Below are positions 3,504-22,285 of a DNA stretch of 25,748 bases, piece by piece. Position 1 is the stretch's first letter. Each line of letters starts with the position of its first letter. Both the position numbers and the translations under genes were made by a program. A model generated the notes under the pieces. That model had not been told where the DNA came from and did not search any database. It worked only from the letters and a program-made list of their open reading frames with translations. The DNA comes from an uncultured Lentisphaerales bacterium (GTDB lineage: Bacteria > Verrucomicrobiota > Kiritimatiellia > RFP12 > JAAYLN01): assembly GCA_964426115.1 (NCBI GenBank), contig CAYRPP010000001.1:1-25748 (forward strand), in the 5' to 3' direction.

Positions 3504-3703
3504 CGACCTTATGAACCGCCCGTCCGGATTCGGCGGCGCGATGCAGAATCAGTCTGGTCACACGCGGCACGGAGTGCATATCATGGTAACCGGTATCTGC
3601 CCGCTGTCGCGCTACAGCGCCGTTGCTTTGCGGTTCGTGATGCGCAAGCGAAGCGCAACAGGCCGCAGGATGGCCTTGCGGGCTCTCAAATACTTACAAA
3701 CAC

Positions 3704-3731
3704 TTGCACAAGGTGCGGCATCTGCTATGTT
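3704..3731 (+). promoter_or_regulatory. Putative sigma70 promoter with extended -10
   Basis: TTGCAC (3704-3709), 16 nt, then TATGTT (3726-3731) preceded by TGc. Lies in an AT-rich patch about 40 nt upstream of the AAGGAG RBS and ATG 3772. Confidence 0.55.
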
Positions 3732-3771
3732 ACGTGCCATACGGCATCGTTCAACCAAGGAGAATGACGCG

Positions 3772-4491: not shown

Positions 4492-4502
4492 GGGAACACG
4501 GC

Positions 4503-5678
4503 ATGGATCGCGGAGTGCTGAAGGAGCGGCTGGCGCTGGCGTGCGGGTGGCTCACGGAGGTGGCGCAGGTAGGGAGCGAGGAGCGGCTGCCTAACGAGAC
4601 GCGGCGGCACCACCACGCCTCGTGGGCCGGCGCCATTCGGGGCGAATACCGCGCCGCGACCCGCGAGTGGGGCTTTTTTGGGCCGGTCTGGCACACGGGC
4701 CAGGCCGTCAAGGCGCTGGCCATGGCCGCTCCCGTGCTGGGGCCCTCCGTGCTCGCGGGGGCGCGGGCCGGAGCCGATTTCATCCTGAACGCCGTCGTGC
4801 GCGAGGGGCCGGACCGCGGCATGATCCTGTCGTACGAGGACGACGTCGACAAGGCCTCTTCCTCCTGCGCCCTGGAGTGCCTGGACGGGTTGCTGCACCT
4901 TTACGCGGCCACGGGGGAGACGCGCTACCGCGATGCCGCGCTGGAGGCGCTGGCCTGGCTGGGAGAACATGCCTACATGCCGGGCACCGGTCTCTTCCGC
5001 GACTGCTACGATCCGGCGGCGCGGGCCTTCGTGCCGCAGCGCCACGGTGTCGAGGGGCGTCCGCTGCTCGACGACGCCATCTTCCTCAAGGGCTATCTCC
5101 TCAACCACGACCGGCGGCTGCTGCAGATCGCCGAGGAGACGGCGCAACGACTGCTGCGCGACGAGCGCCCGTCCGGCATCTGGATCGACTATCCTCCCTG
5201 CGACCGCGCGCGCGGCGCCATCCATCCCCGGCATGCGTACTGGTGGGGATACCCGATGCTCGACCTGTACCGCCACACCGGCGACAGCCGCTACCGCGAC
5301 GCCTTCGGGCGCAGCGTGCGGTGGTATGCCGGCGCCATGCGGCGTGACGGCGGCATCATCCGCGACACCTACCTGGACTTCAACACGGACTCCTTCGGCC
5401 ACGCCACCTCGGGCGTCGGCTGCGCCGTCTGCATGTTCATCGACCACCAGGCCATCGAAGGCGGCGCGGAGATGCCGCCGCTGATCGAGACCGGCCTGCG
5501 CTATTGCCTGCGCATGCAGTTCACGAAGCCGGCCGACCCAAACCTGAAGGGCGCCATCCTGGAGAAGGTGCTGCGTCCGAACGGGACGGACGACAGCCCA
5601 TACCATCTGCGCGACCTGGGGACGATCTTCTTCATCCAGGCCGCCTGCCGGTACCTGGCACAGGAATTGCCCAAGTGA
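4503..5678 (+). CDS. Cytoplasmic six-hairpin glycosidase-like ((alpha/alpha)6 toroid) protein; specific family unresolved
   Basis: RBS GAGG at 4490-4493, ATG 4503. Repeated toroid-type helices (LLHLYAATGETRYRDAA, LDLYRHTGDSRYRDAF, YLLNHDRRLLQIA). No signal peptide. Confidence 0.65.
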   Translation: MDRGVLKERLALACGWLTEVAQVGSEERLPNETRRHHHASWAGAIRGEYRAATREWGFFGPVWHTGQAVKALAMAAPVLGPSVLAGARAGADFILNAVVREGPDRGMILSYEDDVDKASSSCALECLDGLLHLYAATGETRYRDAALEALAWLGEHAYMPGTGLFRDCYDPAARAFVPQRHGVEGRPLLDDAIFLKGYLLNHDRRLLQIAEETAQRLLRDERPSGIWIDYPPCDRARGAIHPRHAYWWGYPMLDLYRHTGDSRYRDAFGRSVRWYAGAMRRDGGIIRDTYLDFNTDSFGHATSGVGCAVCMFIDHQAIEGGAEMPPLIETGLRYCLRMQFTKPADPNLKGAILEKVLRPNGTDDSPYHLRDLGTIFFIQAACRYLAQELPK

Positions 5679-5731
5679 GGCAAGACGGGCTGCGCGGCAG
5701 CCCGGCGACGGACAGACACAAGGGAGAACGA

Positions 5732-7114
5732 GTGAAAATCACGATCATCGGCGGCGGCTCGTACTGCTGGACGCCCACCCTGTTCCGCGACATCGTCTGC
5801 ACCGAGGGCATGGAGGGCAGCGAGATCGTACTGCATGACATCAACAGCCGCAACCTCGTGGATCTGCACGCTTGCTGCCAGGCGATCCTGGGACAACTGG
5901 GACAGACCGGACGCTTCAAGGTCGGCGCGACGACGAACCTCGCCGGCGCCCTGCGCCGCGCGGACTGTGTGATCCTGACGATCACCACCGGCGGCCTGGA
6001 CGCCATGGAGCACGACCTGGAGATCCCGTACACCTACGGCATCTGGCAGCCCGTCGGCGACACCGTGGGCCCCGGCGGCATCTCCCGCGCGCTGCGAAAC
6101 GTCCCGGTGGTGGTCGACATCGCGCGCGAGATGGAGCGGCAGTGCCCCCGCGCCTGGCTGCTGAATATCTCCAACCCCATGTCCGCGATCACCCGCGGTG
6201 TGTGGCGCGAGACGGGCATCCGCTGCATCGGCCTGTGCCACGAGCTCTACGGCACGCTGGCGCAGCTCCAGAAGATCCTGGGCGCCAAGGACTGGCGCAC
6301 GGACTTCGACTGCGTGAGCGTGGGCGTAAACCACCTGCCCTGGATCATCCGCCTCTCCTACCAGGGACGCGACGCGTTCCCCGCCGTGCGCCGCGCCCTG
6401 GCCAAGAACCGGGTACCCGCGTCGGGCAAGGAGCCGGGCACGGTGCTTGATCGGACGCTCATGGGGAGCAACGACGTCAAGTTCGCGCTCTTCGAGGCCT
6501 TCGGCGCCCTGCCGGCGGCGGGCGACCGGCATCTCGTCGAGTTCTTCCCCTACTTCTGCACCGCCCGCATGCGCAAGGGCGCCGCCATGGGCGTTGAGCT
6601 CACCCGCATCGGGCAGCGGCGCGACGTGTGGATGCCGGCCTGGAAGCAGAAGGTGGCGGACATCACCAGCGGCAAGGCGCCGGTCAAGTCCGTGGTCTCC
6701 AAGGAGGCAACCTCGCGCGTCGTGGCGGCGCTCGGCGGCCTCCGCGAATGGAGAGACGTCGTCAACATCCCTAACGCCGGACAGGTGCCCGGCATCCCGA
6801 AGGACGTCATCGTCGAGACCATGGGACTCATCGTCCGCGACCATGTGTACGGGCTGCCCGTCGGCGAGATGATACCGCCTGGCATCCTCACCCAGATCGC
6901 GCGCCACGCGACGAACCAGGAGATGACCGTCGAGGCCGCGCTGACCGGCGACCGCTCGCTCGTGCTGCAGGCCATGCTCAACGACCCGCTTTGCGGCGCG
7001 ATCGGCGATTTCCGCCGCATGGAACGGATGATGGACGAGCTGCTGCAGGCCAACCGCCAGTGGCTGCCGCGCTTTTTCGCGCGGCGTAGGCGCGCGGCCG
7101 GCGGCCGCCGTTAG
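5732..7114 (+). CDS. Glycoside hydrolase family 4 (NAD+/Mn2+-dependent; alpha-galactosidase/alpha-glucosidase-like)
   Basis: GTG 5732 after GGGAG. Rossmann KITIIGGGS, GH4 signature DLEIPYTYGIWQPVGDTVGPGG, NISNP, metal-binding GLCHE, GVNHLPW, LQAMLNDPL. Confidence 0.92.
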   Translation: MKITIIGGGSYCWTPTLFRDIVCTEGMEGSEIVLHDINSRNLVDLHACCQAILGQLGQTGRFKVGATTNLAGALRRADCVILTITTGGLDAMEHDLEIPYTYGIWQPVGDTVGPGGISRALRNVPVVVDIAREMERQCPRAWLLNISNPMSAITRGVWRETGIRCIGLCHELYGTLAQLQKILGAKDWRTDFDCVSVGVNHLPWIIRLSYQGRDAFPAVRRALAKNRVPASGKEPGTVLDRTLMGSNDVKFALFEAFGALPAAGDRHLVEFFPYFCTARMRKGAAMGVELTRIGQRRDVWMPAWKQKVADITSGKAPVKSVVSKEATSRVVAALGGLREWRDVVNIPNAGQVPGIPKDVIVETMGLIVRDHVYGLPVGEMIPPGILTQIARHATNQEMTVEAALTGDRSLVLQAMLNDPLCGAIGDFRRMERMMDELLQANRQWLPRFFARRRRAAGGRR

Positions 7115-7136: not shown

Positions 7137-9329
7137 ATGCTTATAAGGAACCGAGACAAGGAAGCTGGGAAGAAGGGCTCCGGGCGCGGCTGGGCGCGCG
7201 CGGCGGCCCTGCTGTGCGGCTTCGGCGGCATTCCTCTGATCGGCTTGTACGTCCACTGGTTCCCGACCGTCGCCATGGGGAACGGCGCCTTGCAGGTTGT
7301 GTTGATGAACGCCCTGGCGCCGGTAGTTTTCTTCCTCATGCTCGTGCTGGTCGGCATCGTCAACCCGCTGCTGCACCGCTTCCTGCGGCCGATGGCCATG
7401 GCACGCGGCGAGCTTCTGCTCGTCTTCACGCTCTGGTTCATGGGCAGCGCCGTCTGCTACCGCTGCCTGACGATGCCCGCCATGGCAGCCATCGGCAGTC
7501 TCCAGAGCCCCGCCACCGACACGCCGGCGCTGCGGCGCACCGGGCTTAAGAACTACCTGAAGTCCGCCTTCCACCTCCCGGCCGCCGCAGCCAAGGACTA
7601 CTTCTACGGCCTCGCGCCCGGCGGCGAAACGCGCGTCCGCCTGCTGCCGCGTTCCGCCGCGGCACCCGCGGCCACGCCTGCGGCAGCTCCCGCGGAAGCA
7701 TCCAACGCCGCGCCCGCCGCCGCAGCCCAGGCGGAGGCTCCCGTGCCCGCCATCCCCTGGCACGCCTGGGCCAAACCGCTGGCCTTCTGGGTGCCGTTCA
7801 TGCTCGTGGTCGCCGCCTTCTCCGCCTCGCTCGTGCGGATGCTCCAGCGGCAGTGGTCGCAGCACGAGCTGCTGACATATCCGCTGGCCGCGGTGGGCGA
7901 GTCGCTCATCGGTCGCGAGCCCGGCCGGGCATTTCCCGCCGTGTTCTACCAGGGACTCTTCTGGATCGGCTTCGCCCTGCCGGTCTTCATCGACGTGATC
8001 AACGGCCTGCGGGCCTACTTCCCGCTGATGATAGAGATCCCGATGGCCTTCAACCACCAGTCGCTGATCGGCAAGTTCCCCTTCCTGGCCAAGTACTGCG
8101 GCTTCCACGCCTACGGCCTCTTCCGCGGATTTGTCTACCTGTACATGATCGCGATCGCGGCGCTGCTGCCGACCGAGATCTCGCTCACCTGTTGGCTGGG
8201 ATGGATCCTGATGCTGCTCGGCACGGGAGCCTACTTCAAACTGACCGGCGAAGTCATCACGGAGACCGAGACCGCCAGCATGCAATATGGCATGTACGCG
8301 GCCATGGCTCTGACAATCCTTTACATTGGCCGCCGCGAGTACCTTAACGTGCTGCGCTGCGCCGTCGGGCTGCGGCGCGCGTCCGATCAGGGGCTGGCAC
8401 GGGCCGCGCGGAGCTGTCGCGTTTTCCTGCTCTCCGGCGTCATCCTGTGGTGGCTGCTGACGGTGCTGGGCCTGGACGGCTTCATCGCCGTCGTGCTGGT
8501 GGTCTCGCTCTCGGTGGTCGTGCTGCTGATCGCGCGCCTGACGGCCGAGACCGGCATCCCATGGCTGTACAACTTCATCGGCATGGCCAGCGGTCTGCCC
8601 CTGAAGCTGCTGGGTGCCGCGGCCATCGGGCCGCAGTCCCTGGCGGTCATCGCCACCGTGGGCGTGGTGCTCGACTCCAATACGACGAACACCCTCGCCG
8701 CCCAGGAGACCACCTACGGCAAGATGCGCGAGCAGACCGGCGCCTGGCCGCGCGGGCCAATCTTCAACCTGATCCTGGCGGCCGGCATCTGCCTGGCCAT
8801 CGTCAGCGGCATCGTCTTCACCTTGCGGGACAACTACACTTTCGGCGCGCAGCCCGACCAGTATGACTCGGTGATCGTCGGCCGCCTGCATGCCGCGGCC
8901 TCCGAGGTCTCGCGTCTGGAGGCCGAGGGGCGCATGGAGGAGGTGCAGGCCACGCACGGGCTCGCCAAGCTGAGACTCGTGAAGCCCGACCCCGGCCTGT
9001 TGCGCTTCCTGGGCATCGGAGCCGTGCTGGTCGCCGCGTGCGCGCTGCTGCGGCTGCGGTTCGCGGGCTGGCCGTTCCACCCGTTGCCGCTGCTCTTCAT
9101 CAACTCCTGGACGATGTCGCGGCTCTTCCTCTCAATCATGCTGGGCTGGCTGGTCAAGATGGCCATTCTGCGCATCTGGGGCGGCACGACCTTCGCGCGC
9201 GTCAAGCCGCTCTTCTTCGGCGTGGTCTTCGGCCAGGTGGCGATCCACGGCGTCTGGCTGATCGTCAACAGCATCTATTTCCTCGCGACGGGTATCACCC
9301 CGCCCAAAGTGCCTGGAGGTTTCTATTGA
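7137..9329 (+). CDS. Polytopic membrane protein, DUF6785/DUF6784-like (OPT-superfamily-like)
   Basis: Many hydrophobic helices. Motifs FYGL...IPWHAWAKPLAFW, QWSQHELLTYPL and C-terminal LRLRFAGWPFHP...GWLVKMAILRIWG. Start codon is uncertain because the RBS is weak. Confidence 0.75.
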   Translation: MLIRNRDKEAGKKGSGRGWARAAALLCGFGGIPLIGLYVHWFPTVAMGNGALQVVLMNALAPVVFFLMLVLVGIVNPLLHRFLRPMAMARGELLLVFTLWFMGSAVCYRCLTMPAMAAIGSLQSPATDTPALRRTGLKNYLKSAFHLPAAAAKDYFYGLAPGGETRVRLLPRSAAAPAATPAAAPAEASNAAPAAAAQAEAPVPAIPWHAWAKPLAFWVPFMLVVAAFSASLVRMLQRQWSQHELLTYPLAAVGESLIGREPGRAFPAVFYQGLFWIGFALPVFIDVINGLRAYFPLMIEIPMAFNHQSLIGKFPFLAKYCGFHAYGLFRGFVYLYMIAIAALLPTEISLTCWLGWILMLLGTGAYFKLTGEVITETETASMQYGMYAAMALTILYIGRREYLNVLRCAVGLRRASDQGLARAARSCRVFLLSGVILWWLLTVLGLDGFIAVVLVVSLSVVVLLIARLTAETGIPWLYNFIGMASGLPLKLLGAAAIGPQSLAVIATVGVVLDSNTTNTLAAQETTYGKMREQTGAWPRGPIFNLILAAGICLAIVSGIVFTLRDNYTFGAQPDQYDSVIVGRLHAAASEVSRLEAEGRMEEVQATHGLAKLRLVKPDPGLLRFLGIGAVLVAACALLRLRFAGWPFHPLPLLFINSWTMSRLFLSIMLGWLVKMAILRIWGGTTFARVKPLFFGVVFGQVAIHGVWLIVNSIYFLATGITPPKVPGGFY

Positions 9330-10834
9330 GCGGCGGCACGGACATAGTAGCGGCTCCCGAGCGTCTCGAAGTGCGGCCCCAGGCGCGCCTCTCGTTCCGC
9401 CGTCTGCTGGAAGTCTGCCTGGACAGCCTGGCGCACCGGCTGCTGCGCTCGTCGGTGGCCATGGTCATCGTCCTGCTGGCCGTCGCCTTCCTGGCGTTCG
9501 TGACCGGCGAGAACGCGCTGGGGCGGGGCGCCCATGCCGCCGCCCGCGAGCGCGCCGGGCAGGTGGCCGCCTACACCCGCTTCCTACGGAAGGCCAGCCA
9601 GGTCGAGTCCGCCGAGCAACTCGTGCGCCGCGCGGACCGCATGCGCCCGGGATCGGCGGACATGTCCAACCTGGTGCGGTGGGGCGTGATGGATGTCGCG
9701 GACGCCGCCGCGTTTGTCGCCATGTGCCGCGACACGGCAGGCTATCTGGACTTCTTCGACCGGCTGCCGCTTGGGCGCCGCGTGCTGCTGGTCGAGGACC
9801 GCAAGGGCCTTGAGCTGCTCGACTGGCTGTCCGTGGCGCCGAACCTCGCGGTCTTCCGCGCGCGCTTGGCCGGCATGCCGTCCGTCAGCTTGCCGGGCGG
9901 CGCGGCGGCGCTCGACCCGTTCCTCGGCCGCTGGACGGCGTTCCGCGGACGGCTGGCGCTCGTGAACCGCAACCACGCGGACGTCGTGCGGCGGATCGCG
10001 GAGTTCGCGGGCGCCGCGGGGATCGAGGGCCGACTCGCCGAGGCCCGGCAGAACCAGGCCGTCCCCGCCTTCTTCGGGGAACTGGCCGCCCGGGGCCTCG
10101 ATATCGAGAAATCCGACATCGCGAACATCACGGAGGGCCTCGCGCAGCACCGCGATGTCAACTGGGCCTTCGGGCTGCTCAAGCAGACGCCCGTGCGCGT
10201 GGGCTGGCAGCGTGAGTACCGCGAGCAGTTCAATCCCGCCGCCGCGCTCGAAAGTCTGGCGCGACACAGCGCGCGCGTCGCGTGGATCGCGGAACGTCTG
10301 CGGAAGGCCGAACCGGCTACGGAACTCGACACGGCGCGTCTGGCGTCCGTCGCCGGGGTGTACGCGCGCAACCAGGCTGTCCTGCGCCAGGAGGAGCGCC
10401 TGGACGCGCGCTACGGCGAGGGCGGACGTACGGCCGGGCGCACGGTGTGCCTGATCGTGGTCTCCTTCCTCGTCTGCGTGGCGGGCATCGCCAACGCCAT
10501 GCTGATGAGCGTGCTGGAGCGCTTCCGGGAAATCGCCACCATGAAGTGCCTCGGCGCGCGCAACGGCACGATCGCCTTTCTCTTCATAACCGAGTCGGTC
10601 ATCGTCGGCGTGGTGGGCGGCATCGCCGGCGTGGCGGTGGGCCTGGCCATGGCCTTCGCGCGCCTGCTCGCGCAGCATGGCGGGCTGGTGCTCGCCCGCC
10701 TGCCGGGCCACGAGCTCGCCGCCATCGCGGCCGGCTGCCTGGCCTGCGGCCTGTTCCTGGCCATGCTGGCCGCCATCCTTCCCGCGCGCGTCGCCTCGCG
10801 CATGGCCCCCATGGAAGCGATGAGGATCCAGTGA
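9326..10834 (+). CDS. FtsX/MacB-family (type VII ABC) permease, small subunit
   Basis: TTG start overlaps the upstream stop (TTGA) with RBS GGAGGT at 9315-9320. TM1 after LAHRLLRS, a large extracytoplasmic domain, then FtsX motif IANAMLMSVLERFREIATMKCLGA...FITES and C-terminal LPARVASRMAPMEAMR. Confidence 0.9.
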   Translation: MSGGTDIVAAPERLEVRPQARLSFRRLLEVCLDSLAHRLLRSSVAMVIVLLAVAFLAFVTGENALGRGAHAAARERAGQVAAYTRFLRKASQVESAEQLVRRADRMRPGSADMSNLVRWGVMDVADAAAFVAMCRDTAGYLDFFDRLPLGRRVLLVEDRKGLELLDWLSVAPNLAVFRARLAGMPSVSLPGGAAALDPFLGRWTAFRGRLALVNRNHADVVRRIAEFAGAAGIEGRLAEARQNQAVPAFFGELAARGLDIEKSDIANITEGLAQHRDVNWAFGLLKQTPVRVGWQREYREQFNPAAALESLARHSARVAWIAERLRKAEPATELDTARLASVAGVYARNQAVLRQEERLDARYGEGGRTAGRTVCLIVVSFLVCVAGIANAMLMSVLERFREIATMKCLGARNGTIAFLFITESVIVGVVGGIAGVAVGLAMAFARLLAQHGGLVLARLPGHELAAIAAGCLACGLFLAMLAAILPARVASRMAPMEAMRIQ

Positions 10835-11643
10835 TGGACGGAGAAGCCATCCGCGACCAGCCCGCTGCAGCGGACGCCGCACCGGCGGCGCCCCGCCCTG
10901 CCGTCCGGCGCCATGTCAGCCCCGTCATCCTCCGCACCCGCGACGTGACCAAGGTCTATCGCCCGGGGAGCGTCGCAGTGCATGCCCTGCGCGGCGTGAC
11001 CGTCGAGATCCGTCGCGGCGAGTTCGTGTCGATCATGGGACCCTCGGGGAGCGGCAAGACCACGTTCTTCAACATAGTCGGCGCCCTGGTCGCGCCGACC
11101 AGCGGGCGCGTGCTGATCGACGAGGTCGATGTCGCCCAGCTCAACAAGGACGAACTGGCCTTCATCCGCTGCCGCAAGATTGGATACGTGTTCCAGACGT
11201 ACAACCTGGTGCCCGCGGCGACGGCCCTGGAGAACGTCATGATGTCCATGCTGTTCGCGGGCGTCGTGCCCGACGACGCGCGGCGGCGCGGCATGCATCT
11301 GCTCGAGCGCGTCGGACTGGGTGACCGATGGTTCCACCTGCCCAAGGAGCTCTCGGGAGGACAGCAGCAGCGCGTGGCAATCGCGCGCTCGCTGGCGAAC
11401 GATCCGCGCATCCTGCTCTGCGACGAGCTGACCGCGAACCTTGATCTCAAGACCGGCCAGGCCATCATCGACCTGCTGGTGGATCTGAACAAGCAGTCGG
11501 GCGTCACGGTTGTGTGCTCCACACACGACTACCGCATGATCGACAAGTCGGACCGCATTCTCTGGATCCGCGACGGTCGGATCGAGAAGATCCAAGCGCG
11601 TCACGAGATCCGGGTGCGGCTCGGCTCGGTGGAGGAGGAATGA
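10834..11643 (+). CDS. LolD/MacB-family ABC ATP-binding protein 1
   Basis: TGATG overlap at 10832-10836. Walker A GPSGSGKT, Q-loop GYVFQ, signature LSGGQQQRV, Walker B ILLCDE, H-loop STHD. Confidence 0.93.
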   Translation: MDGEAIRDQPAAADAAPAAPRPAVRRHVSPVILRTRDVTKVYRPGSVAVHALRGVTVEIRRGEFVSIMGPSGSGKTTFFNIVGALVAPTSGRVLIDEVDVAQLNKDELAFIRCRKIGYVFQTYNLVPAATALENVMMSMLFAGVVPDDARRRGMHLLERVGLGDRWFHLPKELSGGQQQRVAIARSLANDPRILLCDELTANLDLKTGQAIIDLLVDLNKQSGVTVVCSTHDYRMIDKSDRILWIRDGRIEKIQARHEIRVRLGSVEEE

Positions 11644-14600
11644 GCGTGAGGCGCGCAGATGCGGTGGGCGGCGGAGCGGGCCGCGGCGGGAGTCGGCGGG
11701 GTAGGGCACCGCGCGCCGCCAACCTGCTGCTGGGCCTGCTACTGGGTGCGGCGGCGGCCCACGGCACCGCCGGCGGCGCGCCCGTGCTGGACCCCGAACG
11801 CTTCCGGGCGCACGTTGCGGCGCTCACCCGCGAGGACCATCGCCTGGCGGGAACCCCGGAAGGCGGCCGCGCGGCCGCCTACATCGAGTCGCAGTTGCGG
11901 CAGATGCCGGGCGAGGTGTTAACCCAGTCCATCCGCTTCCCGCAGGAGATCGTCGCGCGCTGCGAGCTGCGCGCCGGATCAGGCAGCCTGGCGCTGCAGC
12001 CGCTGGCCGCCAACGGCCTCCAGCCTTGCATCACGCCGCCGGAAGGCCTGCGGGCGCCGCTGGTATACATCGGCGCCGCGCGCCTGTCCGTGTCGGACAT
12101 CAGGGACGCCGGGGCTTTGCGGTCGCGGCTGGCGGCGGCGGAAGGCGCGGCGGCGCCGTCGCCGGCGCGCCGCCTTTGGGAGCGGCTCCCGCCCGAACTG
12201 CGCCAGCCCGCGGCTCCCGACGCCACGGCGGACGGCGGGGACGCGACTTTCCGGCGCCGTCTGGCCTCCGCCATGGACCGCCTCGTGCTGGGCGACGCAG
12301 GTTTTTTCGACGCCCAAGCCTTCGCCGGCGTCTCCCTGCGTCCTGAGACCCGCACGCTGGTGGAGCAGCGCGAGGGCGGCCTAACGGCCGTACAGACGCG
12401 GCGCCTCAACCGCCTGCTGCTGGAGGACGCCTTCCCGGACATGATCACGCGGGGCGCGGACGGCAAGCGCATGGATGGCTGCATCGCCGTCGACGACCTC
12501 GGCCGCCTGGACGCCTTTGGCGATGCCTTCCGCCTCGGCGCAAGCGCCATCATTTTCATCGGGCAGGCGCGCGACAATTTCGGCGCGCCGCCCTGGTCAG
12601 CCGGCCGCCTCCCCTTCAGCGCGGACCTGCCGCGCTTCCTCGTGACCGAGGAGCAGGCGCTGGCGTCCGACCTGCTGGGCGAGGAGCAGGCGGAGTTGCA
12701 TTCACGGGTGACGTGGGAGCCCTGCGCCGGGACGAACGTTTTTCTCTGGATTCCCGGCCGCGCTCCGTCCTTCGGGCCCAACGCCGGGGAGTACGTGATC
12801 CTTTCGGCGCCGTTCGACAGCGGCGGCATCGCGCCCCGCCGCTGCCCCGACCGCGAGCGGGCGGCCAATTGCGCGGCTCTGATCGAGACCGCGCGGATGC
12901 TCGCTGCGCAACCGCCCGCGCGCTCTGTGCTGGTCGCGTTCTTCGACAACCACGCCAACTTCCTGCAGGGCGGACGCGAGTTCTATGGCGCCTTGCGGCG
13001 CGCCATCGGCCAGCGCGCGGACTACTCTTTCGAGGACTGGGAGACTTCGATCCGGGACGAGCGCGACGCCCTGGTCGGCATTCACGCGCTCTACGGGCGC
13101 GACGATCTGATCGGCGGCCAGGCTGGCAGGACGACCGACGCGCTGCAGCGCCTGGCCGACGAGGCCCGCACGCGCTACAACGCCGTGATGACGGAACTGC
13201 AGGACGCCCGCGTCGCGCATCGCAAGCTGGCGGCCGCCGCGGCGTCGGCGGGCCGCGACGGGCGCGAGCGTGAGCTGCAGGCGCGCATCGAGCAGCTCGG
13301 CCGGGAACAGCGCGCCTGGCAGAAGGTGCGCGAGAGCATCCGCGACCGGAAACCTCCCGATGCGTCGCAGGACGCGCTCGCCTGCGACTACCTGCGGATG
13401 ACCATTGAACTCGTGCGCGCGCAGATCGGCGGCCGCCTCCTAGAGCTCGACGACGATGCCCTGCGCCTCGGCGAGCAGAAGCGCCTCACGGCGCCGCTGG
13501 CCGGCGCCACCCCCGTCTGCCACGCCGCCTTCCGCTTCACGGCCGGTTCGTCTCGCTGGCTGTTCCTGCCGCACGGCCTGACGCAGCACATGCGACTGTA
13601 TGCCGCATGGATGGACCGCGTGGGCGCGGAAGGCGCGGCGGCGGCGGGGTTCGCCTGGGACACGCGCACCTCCTGGGAGGCGGCCAACGCCACGCCGCTG
13701 AGCCACGTGGCCTGGCAGACCGTCGAGGAGTGCGCGCTGGCGGAGATATTCAACATCCCTGCCGTGGCACTGGTCACGGAAATGGACCGCACCGCCGCCC
13801 AGGGCTGGCCGGACGACGCCGCCACGGGCGATCCCGACGCCATCCGGGGCCAGGCGCAGGGTTTCCTGGCCTTTCTGATGCCGCTTCTCGACGAGGCGTG
13901 GGTGTCCGTGCCCAACCGCATCCTCGCCCAGCGCAAGTTCCTGATCGAGGAGCCCGCGTGGAACGGCAGGCGGCCCGAGGGGCACGCGGTCAAGATCTTC
14001 GGCTTCGGCGACACCGAGGCCAGCACGCCCGCGCCTAACGCCCTGGTGCGCGTGATGGACGGAAGCATGCGGGCGGGATATGTCGTGATGGCCAACGGTA
14101 ACGGGCACTTCCCGCTGGCGCCGGTGTTCAACACCATCGAAGCGCCGACGCCGGCCCCTGGGGCGAGCTGGCGCTATCTGCAGCTCGAGGCGGCGAGCTT
14201 CGGCGCGGACGGCCGCATCGAGCGCATCAACGCCTGCGTGCCGGGAGGGGGCACCGCCTCCGTGGACACGGGTTGGCACCGCGCGGGGCGCTGGCGCGCC
14301 AAGGCCGAGACGGGTTACAACACGATCCTGACGCTATTCCAGGGTACACCCGGCTTTTTTTTGGGCCGGGAAAATCCCTTCGCGGGCGGATTCAAGACGT
14401 ACAGTTTCCGATTGCTGGGGGGGCTCGGCAATACGGATATCGGCGAGTCCCAGAAGCTCTGCATGCGCTACGACAATGGCATCGGCGTCTGCTGGGTCGA
14501 GCGGCCGGCGGGCATCAAGATCGTCTACAAGGATCCCCGGAATCCGGACAGCGTCCTGCTCTATGTAAACGCCACGCCGGACAACCCCCTGGGAACCGGT

Positions 14601-17066
14601 TACGGACCCGGAGTCCACGAGGAGGACACGGCTCCCCTGCAACTGGATCTCCACCAGGCCATGGCCGCCGACATGCTGGAGGTGAACGAGTCGCGGCTGG
14701 ACCGTCTGCGCCGCAAGAGCATCGTCCTGAACTACATGGAGTACCTGCACAGCCGCGCGCGCCGGCTGCGGGAGGCCCTCGTGGCGGCGCAGGCCGGCCA
14801 TCTCCATTCCCTGGCGGACCTGCATGCCGCGGTGATCGCGGCCTTCGAGCGCAACGTCTACCGGCCGGTCATGGCCACGACCGACGACATGGTCAAGTCG
14901 GTGACCGTGCTTCTGCTGCTGGCCATGCTTTTTGCCGTCGCGGCCCAGAGCCTGCTGCTCCCCACGTACAACGTCTACCGGCGCATCGGGTGCGTGGCCG
15001 GGATCTTCGTGCTGGTCTTCGCCGCGCTGTACGTGTCGCATCCCGCCTTCGCCTTCTCGGCGACGCCCGCCGTCATCATCCTGGCCTTCATCATCATGGT
15101 GATGAGCGGCGCCGTCATATGGGTGGTCAGCGACCGCTTCCGGTACGAGATCAAGAAGCTCAGGGGATTGGCGTCGGAGACGCATGCCATAGAAAACCGC
15201 GTGCTCGGCAACTTCGGCGCGGCTTTCTCGCTGGCGATCTCCGCCATGCGGCGGCGGTCGGCGCGCACCGGGCTGACCGTGGTCACCGTGCTTCTGCTCA
15301 CCTTCACGATCCTCACCTTTGTGGCCTCCCAGGCCGAGTTCGGCGTCCAGACCTTCCGCAAGGGGCCGGCGGCCGACTCCGTGTCGTCCCTGATGCTCCG
15401 CGGCGCGGGCTGGCGGGACTTCCCCGGCGGCCCCGAGCCATGGCGCGACTTCCTGGAGACTTACCACGGCGGAACCTACGCACTGCACGGGCGCTACTGG
15501 CTGACGCGTCCGATCACGACGGACATCAACGCCGACGAGGACCTGTATGTGCCGGTCCGGACGGCGGCGGGCGACAAGCATGCCGTGGCCGGCTCCATCA
15601 TGACCTTGGACCGGCAGGAGCTGGAGCGCGTTCCGGGCATCGCGGCGGTGCTGCCGCCGGAGCACCGGGAGGACTTCGCGAGAGGGGAGGGGGTCTACCT
15701 CTCCCAGGCGCTGGCCGACCAGCTAGGCGTGGCGCCGGGCGCACCGATCGTGCTCTCCGGGCTGCCGCTGCGGTTCCTTGGCGTGTTCGACGCCGCCGCC
15801 CTCCTGAAGCAGCAGCAGATCGACGGCTCGCCCCTCGCCCCCGTGAGTTTCGTGGGCACGCGCATGGCCTTCGGCGAGGCCAAGGCCAAAGGCAGCGCCG
15901 TCGGCGGATCGGATGCCCTCGCGGACATGGAGGAGGCTCTGGAGCGGCTCGAGCCTGAGGCGCTGGTGCCGGTCACTCCCGATGCGCTGGTGATCGCACC
16001 CACGGCGCTCGCCGGACCGCTGCGCCTCGCGCTGAAGGCCCTCGTCATGTATCCGGACGGCAACGGGGACGATCTCGAGCCGCTGGCGCGCGACCTGGCC
16101 ATCCTGCATCACGACGGCGTGTTCGTCAACCAGGGCGGCGAGCGCACGCATTACCGCTACGGCGACCGGCGCGGCGCGCTCGGCTCCGCCGACGTCGTCA
16201 TTCCGCTGCTGCTGGGCGGCCTGATCGTCTTCTCCACCATGCTGGGTTCCGTGGTCGACCGCGAGAAGGAGATCTACACCTTCTCCGCCCTGGGGCTTGC
16301 GCCGCGCAGCATCGCTATGCTCTTCTTCGTCGAGGCCGCCGTCTACGCCGTGCTGGGCGGACTGGGCGGCTACTTCCTGGGCCAGGTCGTCATGCGGATG
16401 CTGGAGGGGGTGGCCCGTTTCGTTCCCTTCCAGGTGCCGGAGATGAACTATTCCTCGTCCACCGTGGTGCAGACTATCCTGCTGGTCATCGCGACGGTGC
16501 TGGTGTCGACCATCTATCCGGCCGTCAAGGCCGCCCGCAAGGCCACGGCGGAGACGCTGCGGCAGTGGCGGGCGCCCGCGCCGCAGGGCAACCGGCTGGT
16601 GTTCGACTTTCCCTTCACCATCTCGCGCTACGACGTGACCGGCATCGCCTGCTTCATCCAGGAGCACTTCCGCAACCATGCCGACCGCACGGTCGGCGCC
16701 TTCGCGGCCGACCAGGCGGGCATCCGGCTGGATGCACAACACCGCCTCGCCGCGCTTTCGGCGCGAATCTGGCTGCAGCCGTTCGACCAGGGCATCAGCC
16801 AGACCTTCAACCTGACCGCTCGCCCGTCGGCCGACATCGAGGAGGTCTGCGAGATCACGCTGCACATCGAGCGCCTCTCCGGCCCCGACGCGGCCTGGCG
16901 GCGCGCCTGCCGGGTCTTCCTGACGGACCTGCGCGCGCAGTTCCTTCTGTGGCGCACGCTGGGCGACGAGGCGCGCGAGCACTACCTGGCCCAGGCCGAC
17001 GCCGTCGAGGCCCGGCTGGCGGAGCCACCCCCGGGACCGCACACCGACAGGAACGCCGAGACATGA
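11640..17066 (+). CDS. Giant (1808 aa) membrane protein: signal peptide, PA-containing M28-fold pseudo-peptidase ectodomain, coiled coils, beta domain, extra TM bundle, FtsX/MacB permease module and cytoplasmic C-terminal domain
   Basis: ATGA overlap at 11640 with RBS GGAGGAGG. M28-like RLAGTPEGGRAAAYIESQL, YVILSAPFDS and RSVLVAFF. FtsX motifs AMRRRSARTGLT and STMLGSVVDREKEIYTFSALGLAPRSIAMLFFVEA. Confidence 0.85.
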   Translation: MSVRRADAVGGGAGRGGSRRGRAPRAANLLLGLLLGAAAAHGTAGGAPVLDPERFRAHVAALTREDHRLAGTPEGGRAAAYIESQLRQMPGEVLTQSIRFPQEIVARCELRAGSGSLALQPLAANGLQPCITPPEGLRAPLVYIGAARLSVSDIRDAGALRSRLAAAEGAAAPSPARRLWERLPPELRQPAAPDATADGGDATFRRRLASAMDRLVLGDAGFFDAQAFAGVSLRPETRTLVEQREGGLTAVQTRRLNRLLLEDAFPDMITRGADGKRMDGCIAVDDLGRLDAFGDAFRLGASAIIFIGQARDNFGAPPWSAGRLPFSADLPRFLVTEEQALASDLLGEEQAELHSRVTWEPCAGTNVFLWIPGRAPSFGPNAGEYVILSAPFDSGGIAPRRCPDRERAANCAALIETARMLAAQPPARSVLVAFFDNHANFLQGGREFYGALRRAIGQRADYSFEDWETSIRDERDALVGIHALYGRDDLIGGQAGRTTDALQRLADEARTRYNAVMTELQDARVAHRKLAAAAASAGRDGRERELQARIEQLGREQRAWQKVRESIRDRKPPDASQDALACDYLRMTIELVRAQIGGRLLELDDDALRLGEQKRLTAPLAGATPVCHAAFRFTAGSSRWLFLPHGLTQHMRLYAAWMDRVGAEGAAAAGFAWDTRTSWEAANATPLSHVAWQTVEECALAEIFNIPAVALVTEMDRTAAQGWPDDAATGDPDAIRGQAQGFLAFLMPLLDEAWVSVPNRILAQRKFLIEEPAWNGRRPEGHAVKIFGFGDTEASTPAPNALVRVMDGSMRAGYVVMANGNGHFPLAPVFNTIEAPTPAPGASWRYLQLEAASFGADGRIERINACVPGGGTASVDTGWHRAGRWRAKAETGYNTILTLFQGTPGFFLGRENPFAGGFKTYSFRLLGGLGNTDIGESQKLCMRYDNGIGVCWVERPAGIKIVYKDPRNPDSVLLYVNATPDNPLGTGYGPGVHEEDTAPLQLDLHQAMAADMLEVNESRLDRLRRKSIVLNYMEYLHSRARRLREALVAAQAGHLHSLADLHAAVIAAFERNVYRPVMATTDDMVKSVTVLLLLAMLFAVAAQSLLLPTYNVYRRIGCVAGIFVLVFAALYVSHPAFAFSATPAVIILAFIIMVMSGAVIWVVSDRFRYEIKKLRGLASETHAIENRVLGNFGAAFSLAISAMRRRSARTGLTVVTVLLLTFTILTFVASQAEFGVQTFRKGPAADSVSSLMLRGAGWRDFPGGPEPWRDFLETYHGGTYALHGRYWLTRPITTDINADEDLYVPVRTAAGDKHAVAGSIMTLDRQELERVPGIAAVLPPEHREDFARGEGVYLSQALADQLGVAPGAPIVLSGLPLRFLGVFDAAALLKQQQIDGSPLAPVSFVGTRMAFGEAKAKGSAVGGSDALADMEEALERLEPEALVPVTPDALVIAPTALAGPLRLALKALVMYPDGNGDDLEPLARDLAILHHDGVFVNQGGERTHYRYGDRRGALGSADVVIPLLLGGLIVFSTMLGSVVDREKEIYTFSALGLAPRSIAMLFFVEAAVYAVLGGLGGYFLGQVVMRMLEGVARFVPFQVPEMNYSSSTVVQTILLVIATVLVSTIYPAVKAARKATAETLRQWRAPAPQGNRLVFDFPFTISRYDVTGIACFIQEHFRNHADRTVGAFAADQAGIRLDAQHRLAALSARIWLQPFDQGISQTFNLTARPSADIEEVCEITLHIERLSGPDAAWRRACRVFLTDLRAQFLLWRTLGDEAREHYLAQADAVEARLAEPPPGPHTDRNAET

Positions 17067-19036
17067 GAAGCCGGAGCGCCACACAGGATCGGGAGCTCGA
17101 GTTCTACCGCGGCCTGATGGAGCCGCCGGGCACCTTCGACGAGGGGTTCCGGTGGTCGGCCCTCATGGGCGCCATCCTGGTCGCGCTCGTGATGGTGCCC
17201 GGATCGATCTACATGAGCCTCATGCAGGGGCAGGGGGTCGGCGGCGCCGCCCAGTGGGTCATGGTGCTGCTATTTGTCGAGATCGCCAAGCGCATGCACC
17301 AGAGCATGAACAAGGCCCAGATCTTCGTGCTCTTCTACATGGCTGGCGCCGCCATGCAGATGCCCTTCTTCGGGCTGCTGTGGAACCAGTACCTGGTGCG
17401 CAGCGAGGCGGTCATCGGCCATGGCTTCGTGGAGCTGATTCCTTCCTGGGTGGCGCCCTCCGATCCCGCCGTGCTGGCCCGGCGCAGCTTCTTCCAGGCG
17501 GCCTGGCTGCCGGTGATCGGCATGGTGCTGTTCTCGCAGATCCTGTCGCGTCTCGACAACGCGATCCTGGGGTACGGCCTGTTCAAGGTCACGTCGGACC
17601 TTGAGCGGCTGCCGTTCCCCATGGCGCCGGTGGGCGCCCAGGGCATCGCGGCGCTGGCCGAGGATCTCGACCAGGCCAACCGGTCGTCGAGCAACCGGCG
17701 CTGGCGCGTCTTCTCGTTCGGCGGCGCGATCGGGCTCGTCTTCGGCCTGCTTTACCTCGGCCTGCCTACGCTATCGGATGCCCTGCTGGGCAAGTCCATA
17801 CGCCTGCTGCCGATCCCCTTCTCGGACTGGACCGGAAAGACGGCCGGGTTCCTGCCGGCCGTGGCCACGGGTTTCTCCTGCCAGCTGGGCTCCTTCATCA
17901 TGGGGATGGTGCTGCCGTTCTGGGCGGTCATGGGCAGCGTGGCCGGCGTCGTCATCACCTTCATCCTGAACCCGATCCTGTACCACACGGGACACCTCGT
18001 CTCCTGGACACCGGGCGACAGCACCGTCGAGACGCTCTTCAAGAACCGCGTCGACTTCTACTTCAGCTTCGGCCTGGGCATCTCGCTGGCGATCGCGCTT
18101 ATCGGCATCGTCAGCGTCATCCGCGGCCTGCGCGAATGGCGACGGCATGCCGGCGCGGCGGAGGCCGTCGTTCCCCCGCCGAACCGCGGTGACCTCTCGT
18201 TCCGGACCGTGGGTTGCGTGTATGCGGCGAGCACCCTGCTGTACATCCTGGTGTCCGGATGGCTGATCGGATGGCACCGCGGCGTCATGGCCGTCTTATG
18301 CGTCTACGGCTTCGTCTACACGCCGCTGGTGAGCTACGCCACGGCGCGGCTGGAGGGCATGATCGGCCAGACCGTCGAAATTCCCTTCGTCCGCGAGGCC
18401 GGCATTCTGCTGTCGGGCTACAAGGGGCTGGCGTGCTGGTTCCTGCCCATGCCGCTGCACAACTACGGCACGGCTACCATGTTCTACCGCAAAGCCGAGC
18501 TGACGGGCACGCGCTTTCCCTCGATCTGGAAGACCGAGAGCCTGCTGATCCCCTTCGTGCTCGTCAGCGCGATCTTCTACGTCCAGCTCATCTGGTCCAT
18601 GGGCGACATTCCCTCGGCGGCCTACCCCTTCGCGGAGCGCATGTGGGCGCTGCAGGCCAAGAACCAGGTGCTGCTCTATTCTTCCACCGCCGGGGGCTAC
18701 TCCCAGTTCTTCGAAGCCTTCAAGCCCGCCGTCATCGGCGCCGGCCTGGCCGCCTCGCTGGGGCTCTTCGCTGTACTGCAGGCCCTGGCCGCCCCCACTT
18801 TCCTGCTGTTCGGCGCGGTCCGCGGCCTTGACCAGACCATGCCCCACGCGATCCTTCTGGAGATGCTCGGCGCGCTCTTCGCGCGCTTCTACCTCGAGAA
18901 GGTCATGGGCGCCGGCGCGTGGCGCAAGACGGCGCCCGTCCTGGCCGCGGGCTTCGGGTGCGGCATGGGGCTCGTCGGCATGTTCTGCATCGGCGTGAAG
19001 TTCATGGCGACGGCGGTCATCAAGACGCCGTTCTGA
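17063..19036 (+). CDS. OPT/YSL-superfamily-like polytopic membrane transporter
   Basis: ATGA overlap at 17063. About 16 hydrophobic segments. OPT/YSL-type motif LERLPFPMAPVG; C-terminal PVLAAGFGCGMGL. Confidence 0.75.
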   Translation: MRSRSATQDRELEFYRGLMEPPGTFDEGFRWSALMGAILVALVMVPGSIYMSLMQGQGVGGAAQWVMVLLFVEIAKRMHQSMNKAQIFVLFYMAGAAMQMPFFGLLWNQYLVRSEAVIGHGFVELIPSWVAPSDPAVLARRSFFQAAWLPVIGMVLFSQILSRLDNAILGYGLFKVTSDLERLPFPMAPVGAQGIAALAEDLDQANRSSSNRRWRVFSFGGAIGLVFGLLYLGLPTLSDALLGKSIRLLPIPFSDWTGKTAGFLPAVATGFSCQLGSFIMGMVLPFWAVMGSVAGVVITFILNPILYHTGHLVSWTPGDSTVETLFKNRVDFYFSFGLGISLAIALIGIVSVIRGLREWRRHAGAAEAVVPPPNRGDLSFRTVGCVYAASTLLYILVSGWLIGWHRGVMAVLCVYGFVYTPLVSYATARLEGMIGQTVEIPFVREAGILLSGYKGLACWFLPMPLHNYGTATMFYRKAELTGTRFPSIWKTESLLIPFVLVSAIFYVQLIWSMGDIPSAAYPFAERMWALQAKNQVLLYSSTAGGYSQFFEAFKPAVIGAGLAASLGLFAVLQALAAPTFLLFGAVRGLDQTMPHAILLEMLGALFARFYLEKVMGAGAWRKTAPVLAAGFGCGMGLVGMFCIGVKFMATAVIKTPF

Positions 19037-19053
19037 GCAAGGAACCTTGACCG

Positions 19054-19782
<729 letters not shown>

Positions 19783-19820
19783 CCGCGCGGACACACGCGG
19801 CACGGATCAGGTTACACGGG

Positions 19821-20723
19821 ATGCATCCAGTGAAGCGCAGTTCGACAGCAGACACCGCCGGCGCCGTGCCGGACGCCCCCGCCGCCTCCGCCGCGGCGCG
19901 CCTCGGCTGGCACCACCTGCTCCTCGACGTGCCCGTGGATTCCGAGGTGCTCGCCTACCAGGCGGATCCCCGCAAGGGACGCCTGATCCTCGGCGACCGC
20001 CACGGCGAGACGCTGCAGATCTTCTGGCGGGTGACCCGCCGCACGCCGGATCCGCTGCTCGGGCTCGAGCGCGTCGTCCGCGCCTTGACGGGCGACGGGG
20101 CGCGCGAGACCATTTTCACGATCAACGGCTGGCACGCCTGCCTGCCGGAACGGGACGATCTGCCGGGGCTTGCCTGCCGCTACGAGGCCCGCGGCGGGGC
20201 GCTGCTGTACGCCGTCTTCCCGCGCCGCGCCCGCCCGCGCCCGGAGCTCGCGATGCTCGAATCGTACAGTCCGAACGACGGCGAGGAGCGCGTCTGGGCG
20301 GCGTTCGGACTCGATGTGACCTTGCCGGCCGCCTTCGCCCCGGCGGTCGTCCGCCCATATCCGCTGGTCCAGAGAATCCGCTTCGAGAATCCGCGCGGCG
20401 AATCGGTCACCCTCTGCCGCCGCTCGCTTATGAGCTATCTGCCCGACGGGGACGACCTGGCCGTCCTCTACGCGCGCAACACGGAGCACAAGCGCCCGGT
20501 GAGCCGCACGGGAACCTTCCTGCACGACACCATCCACCCTGGCGTCACGCTGGCATACACCACCCGCGGCAAGGGCGGGCTGGAGGGCCTGATCGCGCCG
20601 ACGTGGCAGGGCCGCGTCTGGGCGTGGCGCTGTCCCGGAACGGACCGCGCGTACTGGATCGACCATAACGCGCCGGAAAAGCATCTGCTCCCGGATCTGC
20701 CGGAACGCGTACGCTGCCTATGA
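19821..20723 (+). CDS. Hypothetical cytoplasmic protein with two internally repeated domains (possibly PsbP/DcrB-like)
   Basis: GC3-rich ORF filling the gap between ATPase 2 and the PqqD gene, with its stop overlapping the next ATG. No TM segment or signal peptide. Start is ATG 19821 or GTG 19830. Confidence 0.65.
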   Translation: MHPVKRSSTADTAGAVPDAPAASAAARLGWHHLLLDVPVDSEVLAYQADPRKGRLILGDRHGETLQIFWRVTRRTPDPLLGLERVVRALTGDGARETIFTINGWHACLPERDDLPGLACRYEARGGALLYAVFPRRARPRPELAMLESYSPNDGEERVWAAFGLDVTLPAAFAPAVVRPYPLVQRIRFENPRGESVTLCRRSLMSYLPDGDDLAVLYARNTEHKRPVSRTGTFLHDTIHPGVTLAYTTRGKGGLEGLIAPTWQGRVWAWRCPGTDRAYWIDHNAPEKHLLPDLPERVRCL

Positions 20724-21247
20724 AGACCGACCGGCAACAGATCGTGACCGCGGCCATCCAGACCGCCATGGGCGACCGCGCGGAAGACGGGGAACCTTCC
20801 CGGCGCATGGAGGATCTGATCGACTGGCAGATGCGCTCCCTCGTGCTGCGCGCGCCGTCGGCCGTCTTCTCCCTCCGCCCGGACGGAGCGACGGTCGTCG
20901 TCCCGATCGCCTACCGTGGATGGAGAAGCCTGGCGCGCTGTCTGTTCCGACTGCGGCGCGAGCACCGCTACGCCCTCGACCGGCTCTCCGCCGAAGCGGT
21001 TGAGCTCTTCGACGGCCGCCGCACGGTTGGCGCGGTTGTCGGCGAGTTTGGTACGCGGCATCACCTGACGTTTTTCGAGGCCCGCGGCGCCCTGCTCGGG
21101 TTCCTGCATCCGCTGCTGCGGAAAGGAATTCTCCTGCTGGTCGCGCCGCGCGAGGGGTCACGGGGCGGCGGTGCCGCCCCGAACCAGGCCGGTGGAGAGC
21201 CGTTGACGGAGAGCGCACCGCGGTGCGCGGAAAAGGAAACCAGATGA
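20720..21247 (+). CDS. Stand-alone PqqD-family / RiPP recognition element (RRE)-like protein
   Basis: ATGA overlaps at both ends. PqqD-type segment YALDRLSAEAVELFDGRRTVGAVV....LTFFEARGALLGFLHPLLRKGIL. Confidence 0.75.
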   Translation: MKTDRQQIVTAAIQTAMGDRAEDGEPSRRMEDLIDWQMRSLVLRAPSAVFSLRPDGATVVVPIAYRGWRSLARCLFRLRREHRYALDRLSAEAVELFDGRRTVGAVVGEFGTRHHLTFFEARGALLGFLHPLLRKGILLLVAPREGSRGGGAAPNQAGGEPLTESAPRCAEKETR

Positions 21248-22248: not shown

Positions 22249-22285
22249 ACCGCCGCGGATCCGGAATGTCGAGACGAAGGAGACG

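Follow-up and report, generated by a model that had tools for sequence, protein, structure and literature searches.

What becomes of a peptidase fold once its metal site is gone, and what could such a domain do when it is built into a transporter? The question is raised by one gene in a stretch of 25,748 nucleotides from an uncultured Lentisphaerales bacterium (GenBank assembly GCA_964426115.1, contig CAYRPP010000001.1, positions 1 to 25,748), the whole of which is referred to as the window. An earlier interpretation made from the letters alone, the sequence-only reading, had described positions 11790-13890 as an M28-fold ectodomain without any recognisable zinc ligand, comparable to nicastrin and the transferrin receptor (TfR). 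This interval lies inside a single long open reading frame (ORF) of the plus strand, a gene at 11640-17066 coding for 1808 amino acids (aa), and the database entry P0002 is the identical product. Residue numbers are those of P0002, and ectodomain numbers are those of P0002 minus 47. The interval covers ectodomain residues 4-703, and the part of the structural model that matches M28 runs from 1 to about 707. The answer favoured here, with moderate confidence, is that the region forms the periplasmic head of a giant type VII ATP-binding cassette (ABC) permease, in which a non-catalytic module of protease-associated (PA) domain and M28 fold would be moved by ATP and would bind its ligand rather than cleave it.

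The M28 scaffold is recognisable far beyond chance, as had been claimed. Pfam M28 (PF04389) stayed slightly under its gathering threshold of 21.3 bits, scoring the whole ORF at 19.6 bits and the isolated ectodomain at 20.6 bits, and matched 12 of 17 relatives at E<0.01 (best E 9.5e-8). A profile of 72 family sequences run against the PDB with HMMER retrieved 2ek8 (E 7e-18), the Bacillus subtilis aminopeptidase BSAP (6hc6, E 1.6e-15), and 3iib (9e-8), followed by nicastrin (6.5e-5, profile positions 196-335) and nicalin (0.03). An hhalign comparison with an alignment of canonical M28 sequences from the same genome and relatives gave a Prob of 96.9 and an E of 1.4e-10, covering the first three motifs. 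A look-up with a protein language model also led to M28 clusters and was taken as a lead only.

Structure prediction gave the same picture. The AlphaFold2 model of residues 48-1091, computed from the 72-sequence alignment, reached a mean predicted local distance difference test (pLDDT) score of 90.5 and a predicted template modelling score of 0.92. Foldseek placed 2ek8, BSAP, Pseudomonas PaAP, GCPII, and TfR in its top ranks. In VIA-align, the ectodomain model aligned to BSAP 6hc6 with a Z of 25.3 (368/407 residues), to the Aeromonas aminopeptidase 1amp with a Z of 25.1 (257/291 residues, root-mean-square deviation (rmsd) 2.6 Å), and to both TfR and GCPII with a Z of 24.5. Insertion of the PA domain in the N-terminal M28 core is supported by HMMER alignments that span the PA region of 2ek8 and 6hc6; Pfam PA itself matched just one of the 17 relatives. 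A profile of the C-terminal M28 half alone (45 sequences) retrieved no M28 protein from the PDB, only chance matches at E>1. By profile and model, the ectodomain is thus a PA plus M28-fold unit. The profile alignment of the ligands and the comparison of an AlphaFold model with the PDB had been proposed with the sequence-only reading, and both were carried out: they return an M28 fold in which the canonical ligands are replaced.

In active M28 enzymes, the two zinc ions are held by His, Asp, Glu, Asp, and His, and a further Glu is catalytic. Four of these six positions could be placed where the HMMER alignments to 2ek8 and 6hc6 agree with hhalign. The first His ligand, which belongs to the HxD motif, is Pro391 (12810-12812). 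The motif AHxD reads APFD exactly at 12807-12818 (A390-P391-F392-D393), as had been seen, and its Asp393 is retained. The bridging Asp is Glu406 (12855-12857), within DRERAANCAA (D404-R-E406-R-A-A-N410-C-A-A), the string that had been correctly read in place of GAdDNaSG. The catalytic Glu is His438 (12951-12953), and the adjacent ligand Glu is Ala439 (12954-12956). In this region, the residues DNH starting at 12945 (D436-N437-H438) had been read exactly, but the EE pair aligns with H438-A439, and D436 stands two residues upstream of it.

The two remaining positions lie in the C-terminal half of the core. Because the search with that half had found no M28 protein, the fourth ligand, an Asp, was placed from secondary structure and spacing only, at about Arg632 (13533-13535), to within one residue. 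The placement uses a strand at ectodomain 577-585, a seven-residue loop, and the next strand in the model, together with the spacing relative to canonical M28 sequences. The last His, that of YHTxxD, is Gly722 (13803-13805) in QGWPDD (Q721-G722-W-P-D-D, 13800-13817), the motif that had already been pointed out; it is supported by hhalign of QGWPDD against YHHxxDD (Prob 73, E 3e-5) and by a weak HMMER alignment to 3iib. According to these placements, neither the catalytic Glu nor any of the five canonical zinc ligands is kept, the dinuclear zinc site is lost, and the ectodomain is a predicted pseudo-peptidase. The claim that every ligand had gone holds for the canonical identities, all of which are replaced, but the bridging position is still acidic. 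Of the five ligand positions, that of Glu406 alone still offers a carboxylate, and the family as a whole does not keep it. An ordinary M28 peptidase, with 110 bits to Pfam M28, is also encoded in this genome, on contig C158 (2489-3058; G000, locus L032); it has HxD, EE, the bridging and the fourth Asp, and the final His in place.

The loss is not confined to this gene. An exhaustive profile search returned 1,997 representatives at 50% identity with E<=1e-3, including 602 with E<=1e-30, and nearly all of the 150 family matches listed were 1,600-1,900 residues long. ORFs of the same size matching the family were found in 65 of 401 sampled genomes of the phylum, about one in six. A word-index homologue search had returned 8 relatives only and was misleading on rarity; the true extent came from the profile and genome searches. 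The named relatives are metagenome-assembled genomes (MAGs) of Lentisphaerales (92% identical) and Verrucomicrobiota/Verrucomicrobiia, with one labelled Planctomycetota. Ligand composition was counted after alignment of the full ectodomains of 121 family representatives, and none of them keeps three or more of the six canonical M28 residues. The site loss is therefore ancient and general rather than peculiar to this gene. The first-His position is mostly Pro (31), His (14), Asn (12), or Ala (11), with others including Thr, and the bridging-Asp position is Arg in 94. His (39), Gln (32), Glu (15), and Arg (12) occupy the catalytic-Glu position. The ligand-Glu position is never Glu (72 Ala, 18 Tyr, and others), the fourth-ligand position is Asp in 37 and Asn in 33 beside other residues, and the last-His position is Gly in 88 and His in 3. 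Nearly all of them (117/121) keep Asp393 in the HxD motif.

The charges at the old site vary together. Ectodomain position 359, the bridging-Asp position, is basic in 95 of the 121 representatives, and 89 of these carry Asp or Glu at 585 and/or 588. It is acidic in 14, P0002 included, and nine of these carry Arg, Lys, or His at 585. Since the charge at the bridging-Asp position and that in the fourth-ligand region co-vary, the simplest reading suggests that a salt bridge fills the former two-zinc site, Glu406-Arg632 in this protein and Arg-Asp in the main clade.

The closest relatives by profile and fold are bacterial PA-M28 aminopeptidases, namely Aneurinibacillus AM-1 aminopeptidase (2ek8), B. 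subtilis BSAP/YwaD (6hc6), and Pseudomonas PaAP. The M28 core and the place of the PA insertion are those of the 2ek8/BSAP type. In contrast to these enzymes, the six site positions here are Pro, Glu, Ala, about Arg, Gly, and His, and the giant protein adds a helical insert of about 160 residues, beta domains, a stalk, and a fused permease. TfR1 and GCPII (M28B) share the PA plus M28 fold and are also membrane-anchored ectodomains; TfR is a non-catalytic M28 fold reused for binding, and GCPII is an active enzyme. Beyond the shared fold, however, no sequence relationship to TfR was detected, and TfR was absent from the profile matches. No TfR-type C-terminal dimerisation domain was found, as Pfam reported only M28 and FtsX at E<=1 and the model shows beta domains after the core. 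TfR is a type II single-pass protein, whereas the giant protein is fused to an ABC permease with 7-8 transmembrane (TM) helices. Nicastrin and nicalin are likewise degenerate M28-like ectodomains on a membrane machine, and they gave the weak local profile match mentioned above. Pfam Nicastrin (PF05450) does not match this protein and matches one of 17 relatives at E 0.0022. The nicastrin machine is an intramembrane protease of eukaryotes, while the present one is a bacterial ABC transporter. The comparison with nicastrin and TfR stands in the sense of an M28 fold without its zinc site; as a statement on lineage it does not, for the relatives are bacterial PA-M28 proteins and the likeness is one of analogy. 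Given these closest relatives, the site was lost independently of nicastrin and TfR.

The layout of the giant protein was derived from hydropathy and two AlphaFold models (residues 48-1091 and residues 1000-1808). It comprises a signal-like N-terminus, a periplasmic ectodomain of about 1,040 residues, three TM helices, a cytoplasmic linker, an FtsX/MacB module, and a cytoplasmic C-terminal domain, with the following features:

11640-17066, plus strand: whole gene (P0002), 1808 aa, ATG start with GGAGGAGGA directly upstream

11640-11780, plus strand: N-terminal Arg-rich segment and hydrophobic Leu/Gly/Ala stretch (from the sequence; hydropathy under the TM threshold)

11781-11975, plus strand: N-terminal part of the M28 fold, with helices, the first beta hairpin, and a conserved PHRLAGT-type motif (profile alignments, model)

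11976-12686, plus strand: PA domain, an insert of the M28 fold (aligned with the PA region of 2ek8/6hc6; model)

12687-13016, plus strand: middle of the M28 core with remnants of three motifs (alignments, family composition, strands and helices of the model)

13017-13496, plus strand: insertion of about 160 residues, helical and coiled-coil-like, separating the EE strand from the fourth-ligand strand (model)

13497-13901, plus strand: C-terminal part of the M28 core, with the fourth-ligand strand and Gly722 in QGWPDD (alignment, model and spacing, covariation)

13902-14645, plus strand: beta-rich domains of the ectodomain, about 708-955 in ectodomain numbers (model; AlphaFold DB match)

14646-14912, plus strand: three long helices forming a stalk into the membrane (two models)

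14880-15140, plus strand: three closely spaced TM helices (hydropathy, model)

15195-16541, plus strand: MacB/LolC/FtsX-type module with a TM helix, a periplasmic domain of about 280 aa, and three TM helices (Pfam FtsX, NCBIfam, model)

16557-17066, plus strand: conserved cytoplasmic C-terminal alpha/beta domain of about 170 aa (model, cross-locus comparison)

The ATG at 11640 is the likeliest start, with an ATGA overlap with the stop of the preceding ABC ATPase gene. The N-terminal segment would be either a signal peptide or an uncleaved anchor. The insertion of about 160 residues is modelled as four helices (ectodomain 417-437, 451-485, 492-521, and 532-570) and is common to all family members aligned, and His628 in the C-terminal part of the core is conserved. 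A further helical insert of about 130 residues lies in the PA domain (12087-12470, ectodomain about 103-230) and occurs in only P0002, P0003, and P0004 among the family members; model confidence is lower there (block mean pLDDT 72-93). At rank 22, the AlphaFold DB entry A0A7X3NP50 (1262 aa, 'FtsX-like permease family protein') matches the beta-plus-stalk part without the M28/PA head (ectodomain residues 735-1041, rmsd 4.4 Å), which hints that the head was gained by, or lost from, an older ectodomain. The C-terminal domain has no Pfam or NCBIfam match. It is 51-65% identical in the more distant relatives and 99% identical in the near-identical locus L016, and it is rich in invariant Trp, Phe, Pro, and Arg. 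It could be a docking place for the ATPase, the PqqD-like protein, or the 300-aa protein of the cassette described below.

To which class of transporter does the head belong? Pfam FtsX (PF02687) was found in the giant protein with an E of 5.3e-11, its 43.1 bits lying well over the cut-off of 25.5. With a pLDDT of 88.5, the model of residues 1000-1808 shows the architecture of TM1, a large periplasmic domain, and TM2-4 with a MacB-like fold. It matches 5xu1 (a pneumococcal transporter), MacB, LolC/LolE, HrtBA, YbbAP, and BceAB at a probability of 1.00, all of them type VII ABC systems. By Pfam and modelled fold, the giant protein is assigned to the type VII (MacB/LolC/FtsX) class of ABC permeases. 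Identity as LolC/E or MacB at equivalog level was not reached in NCBIfam, where scores lay far below the thresholds: lolCE TIGR02212 matched weakly with 29.6 bits against an equivalog cut-off of 362.45 (E 3e-7), and NF008076 with 27.1 bits against 473. The first half of the giant protein was also considered as a duplicated FtsX repeat. An ectodomain followed by three TM helices would fit that topology, but very short loops join the three helices, and Pfam finds a single FtsX domain.

In the known examples, MacB, LolCDE, and FtsEX among them, permeases of the MacB/LolC/FtsX type pass ATP-driven movement on to periplasmic domains and do not import via binding proteins. Consequently, the proposal that the domain stands in for a solute-binding protein fails: the transporter class is unfit for it, and the domain is covalently part of a type VII permease. 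The related proposal of a membrane-tethered substrate-binding receptor keeps its first half, a pseudo-peptidase fused to a membrane protein, and such a domain may capture a ligand.

The ABC_tran gene directly upstream, joined by the ATGA overlap and kept in all 8 related loci, is the candidate cognate ATPase. Beyond it lies a second FtsX gene. A complex prediction of this small FtsX protein with residues 1180-1640 of the giant scored 0.45 against 0.00 for the best control, which counts as 'weak support'; the runs agreed in at least 54% of contacts, and the pLDDT of the partner was at least 68. Of the solved complexes, 51 of 78 passed the mark applied, as did 2 of 108 mismatched pairs, but at scores of 0.60 and below just 5 of the 78 solved complexes passed, and all 4 passing mismatches (of 180) also fell there. 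As LolCDE structures are already solved, the predicted pairing may reflect likeness or memory only.

The giant gene is the fourth of eight genes on the same strand, a cassette at 7137-21247 whose other members are:

7137-9329, plus strand: polytopic membrane protein with DUF6785 and DUF6784, first gene of the cassette (Pfam, related loci)

9326-10834, plus strand: FtsX permease, 502 aa, with a TTG start overlapping the preceding stop (Pfam, related loci)

10834-11643, plus strand: ABC ATPase between the two permease genes (Pfam, related loci)

17063-19036, plus strand: OPT-like membrane protein (related loci)

19054-19782, plus strand: second ABC ATPase (related loci)

19821-20723, plus strand: soluble protein of 300 aa, without a Pfam match (related loci)

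20720-21247, plus strand: PqqD-like protein (related loci)

For the 300-aa gene, the correct frame ends at 20723 (37% identity to the L001 homologue, E 8e-48). A longer ORF with an ATG start at 19712-20668 in another frame was rejected, as homology supports the frame ending at 20723.

Within the limits of the contigs, each of the 8 related loci examined (Verrucomicrobiota and Lentisphaerales MAGs; L001, L002, and L016-L021) has the same eight genes. Their order is the same in seven of the eight, and L001 has the two four-gene halves swapped. The cassette consists of two modules, DUF6785-FtsX-ABC-giant and OPT-ABC-300-aa protein-PqqD, and their opposite order in L001 suggests two functional sub-units. 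In the relative P0008 (2143 aa), DUF6784, FtsX, and DUF6785 domains are fused in one protein. Identity to the products of the window across the related loci is lowest for the ectodomain (35-41%); the OPT-like protein (60-63%) and the ATPases (about 65-78%) have the highest values. Carbohydrate-active genes lie on both sides of the cassette (987-7114 and 21223-23485) and code for DUF4838 with a GH2 sugar-binding domain, a GDSL esterase, a GH4 glycosidase, a GFO/IDH/MocA oxidoreductase, and a glucuronyl esterase. These are probably neighbourhood rather than part of the system, since the flanks differ in the relatives.

The order permease-ATPase-permease is that of lolC-lolD-lolE, again with two unlike FtsX-type permeases and one ATPase gene between them, and for the C-terminal half of the giant protein, LolC and LolE rank with the best structural matches. 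In contrast to LolCDE, one permease carries an extra N-terminal ectodomain of 1,100 residues and three extra TM helices, and the cassette adds OPT-like, PqqD-like, and second-ATPase genes, none of which belongs to LolCDE.

Taken as a sequence of steps, the favoured reading would run as follows. The fold, the family-wide loss of ligands, the MacB-type module, and the conserved cassette are shown here, whereas the salt bridge, the heterodimer, the transmission of movement to the head, and the kind of ligand are proposed. The head is a bacterial PA-domain M28 aminopeptidase turned non-catalytic with its fold intact, its former metal site probably closed by the Glu406-Arg632 salt bridge, or by Arg-Asp in most relatives. 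The partners of the giant protein would most likely be the 502-aa FtsX protein and the adjacent ATPase, the latter in two copies. Binding and hydrolysis of ATP would then be transmitted via the long stalk helices to move the pseudo-peptidase head, by analogy with MacB, LolCDE, and FtsEX. The head would bind, and not cleave, a periplasmic ligand. A peptide-like ligand is the best guess, because of the peptidase ancestry and the OPT-like and PqqD-like partners in the cassette.

Several points weigh against this account. Both the ligand of the head and its movement are inferred. That residues 406 and 632 touch and that the old site is empty is drawn from alignments, secondary structure, and covariation; this covariation spans few, related clades and amounts to no statistical proof, and the equivalence of Arg632 is good to one residue either way. 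The predicted heterodimer falls in the weak-support range. Moreover, no part of the cassette is less conserved than the ectodomain, a pattern that fits a non-catalytic module and would fit a pure structural spacer equally well.

A bolder extension, which is regarded as unlikely though less so than the alternatives that follow, takes the whole cassette as a hybrid envelope machine of Planctomycetes-Verrucomicrobia-Chlamydiae (PVC) bacteria. An asymmetric LolCDE-like motor would swing the salt-bridged aminopeptidase 'hand', which would take up or let go of peptide-like cargo bound for passage through the two OPT-fold proteins, with the PqqD-like protein and the C-terminal domain on the cytoplasmic side. 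If true, a mechanotransmission ABC system would be coupled to secondary-transporter-like channels; to our knowledge, no such coupling is known for either kind of system.

A more modest, and in our view somewhat less probable, proposal is the strongest form of the sequence-only reading and sees the dead head as the receptor of an importer: it would capture a peptide or glycan in the periplasm and hand it over to the OPT-like or DUF6785 proteins, as a solute-binding protein does in classical ABC importers, and the type VII motor would reset the head. The invariable presence of two OPT-like polytopic proteins and a PqqD-like protein (of peptide-binding type) in the cassette speaks for it, as does the peptidase ancestry, which offers a ready pocket for peptide N-termini. 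The ectodomain also evolves faster than the other cassette parts, as ligand-recognition modules often do. However, the membrane module is of the MacB/LolC/FtsX class, in which we know of no import pathway dependent on solute-binding proteins. Furthermore, the residues of the old substrate site are variable, with His, Gln, Glu, or Arg at the catalytic-Glu position and Pro, His, Asn, Ala, or Thr at the first ligand.

Slightly weaker still is the idea that the head works as an adaptor like EnvC. FtsEX activates hydrolases through EnvC, PcsB, or RipC, and the dead domain with its helical insertion could likewise activate a separate periplasmic hydrolase in step with ATP hydrolysis, maybe a cell-wall or envelope enzyme. 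The logic of the parts is the same: an FtsX-class permease with its ATPase, coiled-coil helices (ectodomain 417-570), and a degenerate periplasmic metallopeptidase domain. Charged residues of the insert (E427, R477, R552, and E555) are conserved in at least 90% of 72 sequences. Nonetheless, EnvC is a protein of its own and carries a LytM (M23) domain, whereas the dead domain here has an M28 fold and is covalently fused, so that the likeness is one of analogy. None of the eight genes of the conserved cassette encodes a hydrolase, be it an amidase or another target, and the OPT-like and PqqD-like partners would be left unexplained.

Least probable is a cryptic enzyme with a rebuilt site, for example a mononuclear centre of His438, Asp436, and Glu406. 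In its favour, the six closest relatives all share FFD-x-H (Asp436, His438), Asp393 is nearly invariant, and a His at the catalytic position need not abolish activity if the PDB title of 2anp, a 'functional' Glu151His Aeromonas aminopeptidase, is followed. Against it, two of these six relatives carry Pro or Gly in place of Glu406 and most of the family carries Arg there, most members have Gln, Glu, or Arg in place of His438, and the positions that supply Asp, Glu, and His in mononuclear M28-fold enzymes such as glutaminyl cyclases read Glu, Ala, and Gly here. A rebuilt dinuclear site had been named as the result that would overturn the pseudo-peptidase assignment. No three metal-capable residues are conserved at the old site across the family, or even among the six closest relatives, and an alternative metal site was judged unlikely on this ground.

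Dead M28 folds are textbook cases in eukaryotes, with TfR and nicastrin as the examples. We know of no bacterial counterpart wired to an ABC motor, and none was found in the literature searched. No paper on the family was found, nor one mentioning DUF6785 or DUF6784, and searches combining FtsX, M28, and pseudopeptidase, or nicastrin, M28, and bacterial, gave nothing relevant. New in the present analysis are the full ligand map of this member, the family-wide counts, the charge-swap covariation, and the full cassette with both ATPases at the locus.

If a salt bridge has indeed taken the place of the two-zinc centre, with the charges swapped between subclades, this would be an example of an enzyme site that was retired while its fold was kept. 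With its metal site lost and a MacB/LolC-type permease attached, the head of the giant protein most likely holds or shifts something periplasmic and does not cut it. Knowledge of its ligand would give a function to the whole cassette, including the DUF6785/DUF6784 protein and the OPT-like protein, and would also widen the range of known jobs of type VII 'mechanotransmission' ABC systems.

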